In this document: positions 2,950 through 38,023 of the stretch, piece by piece
How the letters are laid out: each line of letters opens with the position of its first letter
Position numbering within the stretch: the stretch's first letter is position 1
Source: an uncultured virus (IMG/VR IMGVR_UViG_3300028840_003539)
Taxonomy: Duplodnaviria; Heunggongvirae; Uroviricota; Caudoviricetes
Virus record (IMG/VR): IMGVR_UViG_3300028840_003539
DNA length: 64,000 nucleotides
Direction: 5' to 3' (one strand)
Notes under the pieces: generated by a model
Seen by the model: the letters and a program-made list of their open reading frames with translations, nothing else
What the model was told of the DNA's origin: nothing
Database searches by the model: none
Translations under genes and position numbers: made by a program

Positions 2950-3252
2950 TCGCTAAAACTCCAATGATTTCAATGTGTTACCACTACTTTTACCGTCTTC
3001 GAGGATAGTATTTTGGCGCACGCGTTCTGTGGGTCCGCGGGGCTCTTCTTGTTCCTTTTGGGTTGCCGTCCGCCCCAAACCACCCGTAGCCTACAGCTCG
3101 CCCGCTTGCGTCGAGCACTGAGTAAACCGGGCCGCGATCGGGGTCGTCTTCAACAAACTCCGCCCTGACAGCGTGTCCCCAGAAGGCGCGGTACTTGTGA
3201 AACCACGCCACCAGGTCTTTGCAGTCAGTCTCACGCAGCGAGGTCATCGCTT

Positions 3253-31528: not shown

Positions 31529-31529
<1 letters not shown>
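31260..31529 (-). CDS. Zinc-finger protein
   Basis: CTGKGNGNGGCG...FRCCACG. Confidence 0.65.
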
Positions 31530-33511
<1,982 letters not shown>

Positions 33512-33565
33512 GGGATTGTCCTCCAAGCAGCAGGGGTTGAGCGGCGTTGCGCCGCCGGCTGCTGG

Positions 33566-33594
33566 ATTCTATGCTAACGGGAGTTAGCAGTCAA
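33566..33594 (-). promoter_or_regulatory. sigma70-like promoter with palindromic operator
   Basis: TTGACT-17 bp-TAGAAT; TGCTAAC-N4-GTTAGCA at 33572-33589. Confidence 0.8.
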
Positions 33595-33600
33595 AGGAAA

Positions 33601-34200
33601 GAAGCCCACACCTCACCGTACCACACCTCGCCTCGCCACACCTCGCCGCGAAGCCCACACCGAACCGCACCATACCGGACCTAGCCTCGCCTCACCGAAC
33701 CAGACCACGAAGAACCCTTTCCACACCACACCCGACCTGCACCCTGGCACACCACGAGTCCCGCACCGCGCCCTACCTAAGCGCGCCGACCACACCTGGC
33801 CCGACCGCACCGGACCCAGGCCAGCCGTGAAGCCCCCACCTCACCCCGCCCGTCCACACCACACCTGGCCAAACCTTGAAACCCCGACCATACCGGACCC
33901 CGCCCGACCCGACCCGACCGGCCAGACTGAACCTCGCCATGCCGTACCACGCCACGAAACCCTCGCCGCACCTCACTTCACCGCACCGCACCCTGCCACG
34001 CCACGAAACCCGCACCGCACCCTGCCACGCCCGGCCCCGCCTCACCAGACCCGACCTGTCCCGACCAGACCAGGAAGCCCGCACCACGCCACGCCCGGCC
34101 CAACCACACCTAACCTCGAAACCCACACCTTGCCTCGCCCCGCTTCGCCACACCACGCCCCGCCAAGCCCGACCAGACCAAGCCGTGCCCTGCCACGCCT
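33601..34200 (-). repeat. Punctuated GGY-NN pentamer array (putative guide-RNA array)
   Basis: About 100 GGY+NN pentamers on the minus strand. GGG(C/T)TTC-type delimiters start at plus positions 33601, 33650, 33709, 33756, 33829, 33878, 33956, 34005, 34074 and 34118. Confidence 0.9.
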
Positions 34201-34788
34201 CTACTTGTCGCCGCCCTCCTCGGACTCGTCGCGGCGTGCCTTGTCCCGCGCGGCGCGCAGTGCAGCCGCGCCGGTCGAACCTCGCTTGATCTCCTTCTCC
34301 GTCTGCTTCAGCACGTCGAGCTGCTGCGCCGTCCAGCGTACGCGGTGCTCCAGCTCGGCAGCACGCTCGGGCGGCAGCTCAGTAGCGTCGAAGTTGGTCG
34401 CGGTCGAGAGCGTGGTCTTCGCGTCCTTGGAAGCGCGCTGAACACGCTTCGCGTAGACCGCGCCGTCCACGGTTTCTGCGTCGTGGATCCTGAACGTGCC
34501 GGTGCGGAACGGGCGCGTCACCTCGTACCGCCTGTACTGGCGGAAGTGGCGGTAGATCTTGCTGTGCAAGAACTTGCTCGCCTCGTAGTAGTCCTTCGGG
34601 ACGGGCGTCTCGCCACCGTCGGCGATGGGCACCCTGAGCCGTGCCCACTCACACACCTGGCGGTCGGAGAACGCGTCGCCACGCTTCAGCTTGTCCAGGT
34701 GCGGGAACAGGCGTTGCCATGCGCTCTCCGTCTTCGAGAGTACCTTCGCCGACACTTCTGCCGGCGCAGTCGTCGGCTCGTCACTCAT
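34201..34788 (-). CDS. Accessory protein between the RAMP-like gene and the array
   Basis: 195 aa, basic, with a helical C-terminus; its stop codon abuts the array. Confidence 0.75.
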   Translation of the reverse strand: MSDEPTTAPAEVSAKVLSKTESAWQRLFPHLDKLKRGDAFSDRQVCEWARLRVPIADGGETPVPKDYYEASKFLHSKIYRHFRQYRRYEVTRPFRTGTFRIHDAETVDGAVYAKRVQRASKDAKTTLSTATNFDATELPPERAAELEHRVRWTAQQLDVLKQTEKEIKRGSTGAAALRAARDKARRDESEEGGDK

Positions 34789-34791
34789 GGC

Positions 34792-35475
34792 CTACTCCTT
34801 GACGCGCTTGACCGTCGCGTCGAACGTACCGAACGGGCCAGGGTTGCGCGCGCTCGGGCGGTAGTCGCAGAGCCCTTGGAAGCGCCCGGCGAAGTTGAAC
34901 AGCTCCTCGACCGTGGTCTTGTCGATGGTGCCGTCGGTGTTGTCCACGCGGATACGCCCGGTGATCGACCAGTTGTGGAAGTGCGGGCGGCAGCGGATGT
35001 GCTTGTTGGTGCCGACCGTGACGCGACGCATGTCGATGGTGAAGCCGAGCTTCCTGACCTCTTCGGCCTGCTTGTCAAACTTCTCCATGTCCGCGATGGG
35101 TAGGAGCGCCTCGTAGTTCACCTGCTTGTCGCCGTCGAACGTCAGCGGGTAGTTGATGAGATTGAACTGGACCAGCGCGGCAACGGCGCCCTTCAGCGTC
35201 TTGCGCGAGCCTGGCATCTTGAAGCTCTTGCCAGCCTCGACGAGCATCTTGATCAGACTGGTCTGCGGGATGCTGATCAAGCCCGTTTTGCTGTCGATGT
35301 AGAGGTACGTGACCCAGGTCCACGCCGGGTGTCGGTCGTCGCCCCTGTCCGTGTTCTTGTGTAGCGGGTCGCGGCGCCAGGCCTTCACGCGGTCAGCCCC
35401 TTCGATATCTTCGGAGTGCATCAAGATCGGCATGCGGCCTTGAAGCGTGAATTCGTAGTTTTCGAGTTTTGCCAT
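34792..35475 (-). CDS. Cas7/RAMP-like RNA-binding protein (227 aa)
   Basis: beta1 FTLQGRMPILMH, ISIPQTSLIKML (IPxxxxK helix), thumb region RRVTV...IRCRP and Gly-rich loop GRFQGLCDYRP....GPFGTF. AAGGAGG RBS before ATG 35475. Confidence 0.75.
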   Translation of the reverse strand: MAKLENYEFTLQGRMPILMHSEDIEGADRVKAWRRDPLHKNTDRGDDRHPAWTWVTYLYIDSKTGLISIPQTSLIKMLVEAGKSFKMPGSRKTLKGAVAALVQFNLINYPLTFDGDKQVNYEALLPIADMEKFDKQAEEVRKLGFTIDMRRVTVGTNKHIRCRPHFHNWSITGRIRVDNTDGTIDKTTVEELFNFAGRFQGLCDYRPSARNPGPFGTFDATVKRVKE

Positions 35476-35503: not shown

Positions 35504-35686
35504 TCAGTTGCAGCCGGTTTGCTGTGTGCGTTTTTTGAGCCGAGTCCACACCAGCTTCTGCGCCGCGCGGAATGCTGCGGTCTCAAACTGCATGAGCTGG
35601 TAGAGAGTCAGCTCGGGGTACTGCTTACGAATCTTGGCGCGGAAGGCGTCTTCTGCTTCCTTCCGCATTTTCTTGTGGTCGGCCAT
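35504..35686 (-). CDS. Small basic helical protein
   Basis: 60 aa with GGAGG RBS; same operon as the RAMP-like gene. Confidence 0.6.
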   Translation of the reverse strand: MADHKKMRKEAEDAFRAKIRKQYPELTLYQLMQFETAAFRAAQKLVWTRLKKRTQQTGCN

Positions 35687-35689
35687 TTA

Positions 35690-35983
35690 CTACGCCCTCC
35701 CGCCTGCGCGAGTCCACGCGGTTGGCTTCAGCGTCCAACCTACGCCTTTGTGGTAGAGAGCCCCTTCCGCTTGCGTTCCGGTCAGAAAGGTCACAATGCG
35801 GGCGCCTTCGACGACGAACCAGACTGAGGTTAGCCCGACCGAGACGTGGCGGAAGTCGCGCGTGCGCTGCTCGCCGTCGCGAGCGACGACGACTGCGCTG
35901 GGCGCGAGCGCGAGGAACTCATCAAAGTCTGTGTCGGGGTAGCGCTCGGCGAAACGCCGGCGCGCGTGTCCAGATGGGACCAT
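35690..35983 (-). CDS. Small protein with SxHAxxRxxER motif (BECR/DUF4258-like)
   Basis: SGHARRRFAER, then beta-strands ending VWFVVEGARIVTFLT; AAGGAGG RBS. Confidence 0.5.
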   Translation of the reverse strand: MVPSGHARRRFAERYPDTDFDEFLALAPSAVVVARDGEQRTRDFRHVSVGLTSVWFVVEGARIVTFLTGTQAEGALYHKGVGWTLKPTAWTRAGGRA

Positions 35984-36061: not shown

Positions 36062-36090
36062 ATTATGCTAACTGCGGTTAGCAGAGTCAA
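36062..36090 (-). promoter_or_regulatory. sigma70-like promoter of the RAMP/array operon, with palindromic operator
   Basis: TTGACT-17 bp-CATAAT; TGCTAAC-N4-GTTAGCA at 36066-36083. Confidence 0.8.
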
Positions 36091-36722: not shown

Positions 36723-37595
36723 TCAGTCCTCCTCTGCCAGCTCCGCCGCGACCTCTTCAAGCCGCTCGCGGCCAGCTTGCTCGATCGCCAGTGCTCCGTC
36801 CCACAACGTCTGGTCGCGGACCAGCAACACGTTGTCCTCGACGAGCTGGGCCAGCACCGCCGGTTCCAGCGCGTCTAGCTCCCAGCTCTCGTCGCCGTGC
36901 TCGGCGCGGTAGGCCTCGTAGCGCGCGTCAGTGGTCTTGGCCGGGTTGGGCGGCGGCTGGTACTCCTCGATCTGGTCCATGTTGAGTGCGACCCGCCAGA
37001 CGTACGTCGGCGCACCAAACATCTCCAGCCGCTCGCGGATGTCACGGGTCATGTCCAACCCGCTCGGGTCGTGGTCGCCGAAGTGCAGCACCTTGACACG
37101 CTTGCCGCTGCGGATGTGCCGCCGCGCCGCACGCCACATCGCGCTCTGGCTGACGTAGCCGCGGCAGGAGAACAGCGGGACTCGTAGCTCGTCGCAGATC
37201 CGGCGGAAGACGCCGGCGAGTGCCTCCTTCTCAACCCAGACCTCGACCAGCTTAGGCTGCTTGGCCCACAGGTCCTCGCGGTACTGGCTGACGCAGGCCT
37301 CGACGATGTCGCTCGGGCTGTCCCAGCTCGGCAGCTTGTGCAGGCTTCGCGTCCGGTCTTCGATCGCGATCCAGCTCACCAGGCCGGCGAGGCGGGCGTC
37401 GCTGATCAACGCGCCCAGCTTGCTGTAGCTTTGGACGGTGTTGGGTAGCAGGTCGCGCGCCACGAACTGGTAGTAGAGCTGACGCAACGTCAAGTCGTAG
37501 CCCTGCGCCTGGTACTCCTCGATGATCTCGTTGGCCTGCTCGATCAACGTCAGCGAGGCCTTCCTGAACTTCTTGTCGATGTAGGTGATCTTCAC
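36723..37595 (-). CDS. TopoVI-A/Spo11-like wHTH-TOPRIM protein
   Basis: TLRQLYYQ, EVWVEKEAL, HFGDHDPSG (DxD) and WELDAL. Confidence 0.8.
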   Translation of the reverse strand: MKITYIDKKFRKASLTLIEQANEIIEEYQAQGYDLTLRQLYYQFVARDLLPNTVQSYSKLGALISDARLAGLVSWIAIEDRTRSLHKLPSWDSPSDIVEACVSQYREDLWAKQPKLVEVWVEKEALAGVFRRICDELRVPLFSCRGYVSQSAMWRAARRHIRSGKRVKVLHFGDHDPSGLDMTRDIRERLEMFGAPTYVWRVALNMDQIEEYQPPPNPAKTTDARYEAYRAEHGDESWELDALEPAVLAQLVEDNVLLVRDQTLWDGALAIEQAGRERLEEVAAELAEED

Positions 37596-37605
37596 TTTCG
37601 ACGCT

Positions 37606-38023
37606 TCACTTTCTGCAGACCGCGCAGCCGTCGTACTCCTGCGCGCTCCGGCGTAGCTTGCGGCCCGACTCGAATTCTGTACGTAGCTCTGCAAGCTGCA
37701 GTGGCCACTTGTCGCGGCCAGGTGTGCGGAACGTGCCGCCGAGCTTCTGCTCCAGCTCGACGGCTTGGCCGTAGATGTCTGGGTGCTGCTCGTGCAGCCG
37801 CTTCCACTCAGCCAGGCGCTGACCATAGCACCAGGCACAGTCGGTGCGCTTCGGGACGGAGACGCCAACGCTGTAGGTCGCGCCAGTGACGCTCCATCGC
37901 TGGCAGTTCGTTTCCGGTCGGCGTGCACACGAAGGCGAACGCCCGGTCCGGGTAGACCTCCCGGAGCCGCAGCGCCATTGCCGTCGAGTCCTTGCCACCG
38001 GAGAGGCCGACGACGTGTTTCAC
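37606..38023 (-). pseudogene. PAPS-reductase-like gene with internal deletion and frameshift
   Basis: SGGKDS N-terminus (ORF 37808-38023) and PKRTDCAWC C-terminus (ORF 37606-37998) lie in different frames, about 140 codons in total. Confidence 0.7.

Follow-up and report, generated by a model that had tools for sequence, protein, structure and literature searches.

A probable VIPR guide-RNA array of ten YNNGG-repeat units in the operon of a divergent vipr gene from an uncultured phage

The stretch of DNA analysed here, referred to as the window, comprises 64,000 nucleotides of an uncultured virus of the Caudoviricetes (IMG/VR record IMGVR_UViG_3300028840_003539). It encodes a phage-type DNA polymerase, a helicase, a primase, and a topoisomerase-like protein, and apart from the operon described below its predicted gene content resembles the replication module of a phage. 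Downstream of a predicted promoter near position 36090, the minus strand carries a 97-aa ORF, a 60-aa ORF, the gene vipr, a gene for a 195-aa protein, and a 600-nt repeat array, in this order (Table 1). The gene vipr is located two genes upstream of the array. Since the array directly follows the last stop codon and no space is left for a promoter of its own, it would form the 3' end of the operon transcript, and it is probably transcribed as such.

Table 1. Features of the operon, its repeat array and the adjacent gene, with coordinates in the window.
Feature	Coordinates	Strand	Remarks
Sigma-70-like promoter (predicted)	36062..36090	-	TTGACT-17 nt-CATAAT, palindrome GCTAAC-N4-GTTAGC in spacer; consensus match only
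97-aa ORF	35690..35983	-	First gene past promoter; no Pfam/PHROG match
60-aa ORF	35504..35686	-	No Pfam/PHROG match
vipr gene, 227 aa	34792..35475	-	Stop codon included; ATG at 35475 behind AAGGAGG; matches phrog_4652
195-aa gene, accessory (vap) position	34201..34788	-	Begins 3 nt past vipr stop
Putative vrRNA array, ten head-to-tail YNNGG-repeat units	33601..34200	-	First base directly after stop codon of 195-aa gene
Unit 1	34119..34200	-	About 15 pentamers with two slips
Unit 2	34075..34118	-	8 pentamers + GCTT
Unit 3	34006..34074	-	13 pentamers + GTTT
Unit 4	33957..34005	-	9 pentamers (one without GG) + GTTT
Unit 5	33879..33956	-	About 15 pentamers with slips + GTTT
Unit 6	33830..33878	-	9 pentamers + GCTT
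Unit 7	33757..33829	-	About 13 pentamers with slips; variant break GACT
Unit 8	33710..33756	-	About 8 pentamers with slips; variant break GTTCTT
Unit 9	33651..33709	-	11 pentamers + GCTT
Unit 10	33602..33650	-	9 pentamers + GCTT
Second promoter, same type (predicted)	33566..33594	-	TTGACT-17 nt-TAGAAT, same palindrome; 7 nt past last delimiter; consensus match
665-aa PD-(D/E)XK nuclease gene	31529..33526	-	PF12705, E = 2.9e-6

The upstream consensus match likely marks the start of the VIPR operon, while the second predicted promoter drives the next gene, which encodes the 665-aa nuclease. This nuclease is regarded as a neighbour only: it is preceded by a predicted promoter of its own, and none of the 55 array-bearing loci examined contains a homologue of it. 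Its PD-(D/E)XK domain is the one informative Pfam match among the proteins flanking the array. The palindrome GCTAAC-N4-GTTAGC is present in just two copies in the 64 kb (0.08 expected), one in each of the promoters bracketing the operon. The paired promoters may share a common operator, or they may be the mark of a cassette insertion between duplicated promoters.

Two gene calls near the operon merit a separate remark. ARAGORN reports a 90-nt tRNA-Pro (CGG) at 31683-31772 on the plus strand, within and antisense to the nuclease ORF; probably either this call is false or the ORF model of the nuclease is overlong. The ORF at 36723-37928 on the minus strand, listed with 401 aa, matches phrog_6247 'DNA topoisomerase' (1.2e-112) from residue 112 onward, and the actual start codon probably lies within the ORF as listed.

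Relatives of this phage were not found in scans of viral contigs with the 195-aa protein, the nuclease, Vipr, and the DNA polymerase, each used singly. A metagenome scan recovered nothing but this DNA itself, at 99.99% identity and with a single indel at 36075. The contig concerned (L057, 99.99% over 12.6 kb) carries one extra G at this position, giving the upstream promoter a spacer of 18 instead of 17 nt. Among contigs from four DNA runs, none was an informative relative of the array.

The array is read on the minus strand from 34200 to 33601 and consists of YNNGG pentamers in ten units, with GGG(C/T)TTC as punctuation. The first-pass annotation had located ten delimiters at plus-strand starts 33601, 33650, 33709, 33756, 33829, 33878, 33956, 34005, 34074, and 34118, and all ten were found there. 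The unit lengths it had given (49, 59, 47, 73, 49, 78, 49, 69, 44, and 83 nt) were recovered exactly, the proposed rule of 9+5n nt was confirmed on re-measurement for six of the ten units, and the unit it had chosen as an example, 34117-34074 on the minus strand, is spelled as given. Exact GGG(C/T)TTC is present on the minus strand at eight of the ten delimiters, the remaining two being GGGTTCTTC and GGGACTC. The motif GGGYTTC matches 29 times in the window, 8 of these matches lying within the 600 nt of the array.

One refinement of the earlier parse concerns the boundary between units. The final C of the delimiter doubles as the Y that opens the first pentamer of the next unit. Because this C belongs to the next unit, the true punctuation is just the 4-nt break G-Y-T-T, which gives a clean unit a length of 5n+4 nt. 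The conserved element following a unit, G-Y-T-T(C), is present after 8/10 units, comprises only 4-5 nt, and is unstructured.

The regularity of the tract is apparent in several measures. A greedy parse yields 103 in-register pentamers ending in GG, which cover 515 of 599 nt; 94 of the 103 begin with C or T. All 16 dinucleotides occur at NN in this parse, as had been claimed. Positional entropy, a measure suggested alongside that claim, amounts to 1.75 and 1.96 bits at pentamer positions 2 and 3 and to 0 at positions 4 and 5. At lags 5 and 10 the autocorrelation of G across the array amounts to 0.46 and 0.35, respectively, and at lags 1-4 it is negative. Runs of four or more YNNGG are found 13 times in the 64-kb window; 12 of them fall inside the array, all on the minus strand, and shuffled windows contain a mean of 0.84 such runs. 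The pattern of the array thus exceeds chance.

Other kinds of RNA element were looked for in the same tract. The array RNA folds no better than shuffled sequences (z = -1.27). Rfam gave no match to the array at the gathering threshold nor at E <= 1, and no ribozyme or tRNA-like element was identified in it. A CRISPR-array test on the tract detected only the 5-nt repeats and the 7-nt delimiter, and no direct repeats of 23-50 nt with unique spacers. Among the genes of the window, Pfam and PHROG searches identified no cas gene except the Cas7-like vipr, and neither cas1 nor cas2.

Units 2, 3, 6, 9, and 10 are without flaw, whereas units 1, 5, 7, and 8 contain register slips. In unit 4 the register is intact despite one pentamer without GG. 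Some of the slipped units may be decayed. In the available text of the report describing this class of RNA, vrRNAs are said to be internally degenerate in many cases (bioRxiv 10.64898/2026.04.26.720920).

The 227-aa protein encoded by vipr is assigned to the Vipr proteins by a family profile and its predicted structure. A phmmer search of the PDB with the protein gave SUSP1 Vipr (36pp_D) as the best match, albeit a weak one (E = 0.12). Profile A1, built from the 227-aa protein and ten homologues, matches 36pp_D over the full length with E = 9.8e-51, a strong match that depends on the family profile and not on the window protein alone. Across the ORFs of the window, the profile has a single match, the 227-aa ORF. 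The AF2 model has a pLDDT of 83.9, and the top Foldseek matches, out of 37 at E <= 1e-3, are Csm3/Cas7. The residues that contact GGY are aligned as well, with H20, R163, D204, Y205, and R206 of the window protein corresponding to H17, R138, D177, W178, and R179 of SUSP1 Vipr. H20, R163, and D204 are invariant in 11/11 aligned Vipr rows, R206 is nearly so, and Y205 is an aromatic residue replacing W.

The window Vipr is divergent within its family. In the Vipr tree, which is midpoint-rooted, has weak deep nodes, and omits six duplicate rows and seven weak matches, it pairs with the homologue of locus L021 alone (35% identity, 100/100). It lies on a long branch, apart from the proteins of Felixounavirus wV8 and Pseudomonas phage LESphi2. 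An extra stretch of about 25 aa at residues of about 115-140 is present in the window Vipr and this nearest relative only and is absent in the nine other aligned homologues. The model shows this stretch as two helices, at a pLDDT of about 85-90.

The 195-aa protein occupies the accessory position and has only five homologues in a large protein collection. It has no Pfam/PHROG match and no PDB sequence match below E = 1. Its AF2 model (pLDDT 71.6) consists of an N-terminal H-E-H-H-E-E domain followed by long C-terminal helices. Foldseek searches with this model gave no match at E <= 1e-3, the weak rows being mostly winged-helix regulators, so that a winged-helix likeness is weak at best, and an Atlas structure search leads to unnamed viral clusters. 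Comparison by hhalign with the proteins in the vap1 position of other systems (wV8 gp095, LESphi2 P21_8, and MakoManhole gp77) gave a probability of 0.55%, and no relatives were detected in the 55 array-bearing loci. The protein may be a lineage-specific DNA-binding partner and is put forward as a candidate for this role.

The 55 loci were obtained by scanning viral contigs with the RNA grammar alone, defined as six spaced GG steps followed by GGGYTTC. They range from 31 to 71% GC, and many contain 60-460 nt of the same pentamer code. A tblastn search with the window Vipr revealed homologues in 16 of the 55, adjoining their arrays. A match to the Vipr profile within 3 kb on each side of the array is found in 30/55 loci, a count that is circular for the ten loci that supplied profile rows and in which some of the other 25 loci are cut by contig ends. 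In every case inspected, the array is on the same strand as the neighbouring vipr operon.

A head-to-tail arrangement with GTTT breaks is also found in L008, which has six 59-nt units, and in a low-GC group comprising L001, L009, L019, L025, L031, and L048. GTTT is the most frequent 4-nt linker across the loci, with 9 cases in 5 loci. The Vipr proteins of L008 and of the low-GC group form one clade (100/100). As this clade of seven and the pair formed by the window and L021 are separate, the compact layout requires at least two changes on the Vipr tree. Long tails outside the repeat code, with the potential to form hairpins, come after the repeats in LESphi2 and in wV8, which is related to SUSP1, and the tail after the repeats of Gordonia phage Trine looks tRNA-like. 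Two further loci, L022 and L033 (both at about 3037-3090 on the array strand), have a GGGYTTC ending followed by a short element resembling a tRNA T-arm, GGTTCGA/GGTTCAA.

VIPR is a recently described (2026) RNA-guided gene silencer related to CRISPR, and it has been proposed as the source from which the CRISPR RAMP proteins descend. According to the available text of the first report, Vipr is a minimal RAMP protein, with an RRM core, a G-loop and a thumb, binding vrRNAs of 9-16 YNNGG repeats with a 3' tail, and the vrRNA caller requires at least four such repeats. In this code GGY is fixed and NN is the guide, the NN pairs reading double-stranded DNA with one base skipped between them. The natural targets named there are competing phages and satellites, and about 71% of the systems are virus- or provirus-borne. 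Seven types are distinguished, with layouts including "staggered arrays", hammerhead-separated arrays, and single vrRNAs. The legend of its fig. S18 describes staggered arrays as those in which one processed vrRNA ends where its successor begins, the two overlapping by 1 nt, and refers to 'individual processed vrRNAs' (bioRxiv 10.64898/2026.04.26.720920). The companion structural work, in the part available, describes one protomer per repeat, with named residues holding G1, G2, and Y3 and a Y pocket that excludes purines (bioRxiv 10.64898/2026.04.26.720927).

On the basis of its sequence and the modelled protein, the tract is very probably the guide-RNA array of a phage-encoded VIPR system, borne on the operon, with each unit constituting one vrRNA. 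The locus is assigned to VIPR because a Vipr protein is encoded in the same operon, its GGY contacts are conserved, and grammar and Vipr are linked in 30/55 loci. The earlier proposal of about ten separate guides of 7-15 pentamers with informative NN positions is supported by the published vrRNA logic and by the vipr gene in the operon; the delimiter, read there as a handle or processing site, is a candidate for such a site. The guides comprise 8-15 repeats per unit, compared to the published 9-16.

Of the published layouts, the staggered arrays are the closest. They have in common with this locus the Vipr RAMP gene, the YNNGG arrays, and abutting guides that overlap by one nucleotide, which in this array is the C of GGG(C/T)TTC. 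The array is classed as staggered because the 1-nt overlap of the legend fits the shared C at each break. This comparison is made with the text of the fig. S18 legend; the break in the present array is G-Y-T-T and its units measure 5n+4 nt. Hammerhead-interspersed arrays (types I and V; fig. S19 legend) likewise contain several vrRNAs per transcript that need to be separated. According to that legend they carry ribozymes, whereas none was identified here by Rfam and just 4 nt lie between the guides.

Type II VIPR, known from Escherichia phage SUSP1 and a P. fulva prophage (PDB 36pp), shares with the locus the order of vipr, a gene in the accessory position (here a candidate), and downstream array, the YNNGG repeats, the conserved GGY-contact residues, and carriage by a phage. 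Its vrRNA tail, in the text available, is about 40 nt long with a pseudoknot, whereas the tail here has 4 nt. The guides there number one plus three, compared to ten in one array here. SUSP1 Vipr is remote from the window Vipr in direct comparison, the latter has the additional helical stretch, and the 195-aa partner is unlike the proteins in the vap1 position. The absence of the ~40-nt tail, the unlike partner, and the Vipr branch shared with L021 only speak against membership in type II (the SUSP1 clade).

The backbones of Class 1 CRISPR-Cas systems, formed by Cas7/Csm3 on crRNA, exhibit the same fold, with one protomer per short RNA step and bases flipped at a fixed period. The period is 6 nt in these systems and 5 nt in the present array, whose guide bases are non-contiguous and whose guides are encoded in the genome and not acquired. 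CRISPR repeats are lacking here.

A mechanism for the array can be proposed by analogy to SUSP1. One Vipr protomer would bind each YNNGG repeat, holding GGY flipped out and presenting NN, as published for SUSP1 and assumed here. The NN pairs, with one base skipped, would recognise the double-stranded DNA of a competing mobile element, leading to transcriptional silencing, which is likewise published for SUSP1. At the G-Y-U-U break the register would be shifted by one base, placing a purine in the pyrimidine pocket of the next protomer, where C or U is expected. Since the G after GG is a purine, which the Y pocket does not admit, and since the 4-nt step disrupts the register, the Vipr filament would be predicted to stop at the break. 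A stopped filament would leave a bare G-Y-U-U linker that host nucleases could cut, yielding ten guides of 8-15 repeats without structured tail or ribozyme. The filament stop and the cutting by host nucleases are proposed here and are absent from the published text consulted. The U-rich break resembles the preference of RNase E, which cuts before uridine-rich stretches.

Three other explanations of the tract have to be weighed. The breaks of a VIPR array might not be cleavage sites; the transcript would then remain long, with consecutive Vipr filaments along it, or just a subset of the units would function as guides. This is considered improbable. It would be in line with the slips in four of the ten units and with the scope of the published small-RNA sequencing, which in the available text confirms ribozyme arrays and the single-vrRNA layout, staggered arrays not being among them (bioRxiv 10.64898/2026.04.26.720920). 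However, the legend on staggered arrays speaks of individual processed vrRNAs, and the position and sequence of the break are conserved in 8/10 units and recur in other phages. It is very unlikely that the units, all or in part, act as decoy or hijacking vrRNAs, which would load the Vipr of a rival phage or lure it to harmless sites. Such a function has a precedent in the orphan or solo vrRNAs of SUSP1 satellites, which redirect the VIPR of another element, as stated in the available part of a report that also gives a method for target scanning (bioRxiv 10.64898/2026.10.15.759431). It would also agree with the target searches, as no guide with a target was found in the window or in 347,406 bases of the loci. 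When the window was searched with the array masked, no guide scored above the shuffled nulls; unit 9, for example, reached 15/22 compared to a null maximum of 17. With 137 guides from all loci against the 347,406 bases, matches of at least 0.8 identity numbered 25, 25, 29, and 21 for skips of 0, 1, 2, and 3 bases, and none reached 0.9. The one-base-skip rule thus performed no better than skips of 0, 2, and 3 in these bases, a sample far too small to inform. That targets are missing is accounted for by how little DNA was searched, and the array is not an orphan but shares an operon with its own vipr gene. The composition of NN, expressed in bits per NN, is -3.82 for sense codon positions 1-2, -3.77 for the reverse complement of positions 2-3, and -3.93 for bulk dinucleotides; the codon-position fit is slightly better than bulk, but too weak and ambiguous for use.

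The tract might also act at the level of DNA, as an origin of replication, as a tract forming R-loops or G-quadruplexes, or as an array of protein-binding iterons within the replication module. It does sit amid replication and recombination genes, and the strand in the sense of transcription is G-rich, with GG every 5 nt. Nevertheless, this is judged extremely unlikely, as vipr genes accompany the grammar in 30/55 loci found by the pattern only and spanning 31-71% GC, the strand agrees with the adjacent vipr operon in all inspected cases, and the combination of variable NN and fixed GGY is the vrRNA code given in the available published text. Four early readings, namely RNA for a TRAP-like ring protein, an R-loop/G-quadruplex origin, Chi-like sites, and a ribosome or CsrA sponge, were given up in view of the linkage between the grammar and vipr genes.

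The reading as a VIPR guide-RNA array places the locus within a kind of system that is published (2026), and its staggered layout is most probably published likewise. Particular to the locus are the G-Y-T-T break, the divergent Vipr with its insert, and the unrelated partner gene. It is conceivable, though rather doubtful, that these features define an unclassified VIPR subtype, characterised by a long-branch Vipr with a helical insert of about 25 aa, a partner unlike vap1, and ten guides punctuated by G-Y-U-U alone as a self-sufficient signal. If so, neither a tail nor a ribozyme nor a dedicated endonuclease would be needed for multiplexed guides to mature.

The locus adds a compact example with ten guides, from an uncultured phage of 64% GC, to the known systems. 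As the staggered layout was, in the published text consulted, derived from sequence alone, a clean array such as this one is a good substrate for guide separation without tail or ribozyme. The pattern scan indicates that the GGG(C/T)TTC repeat ending is not confined to this phage and recurs in viral contigs spanning 31% to 71% GC. The array would offer a very small format for multiplex guides.
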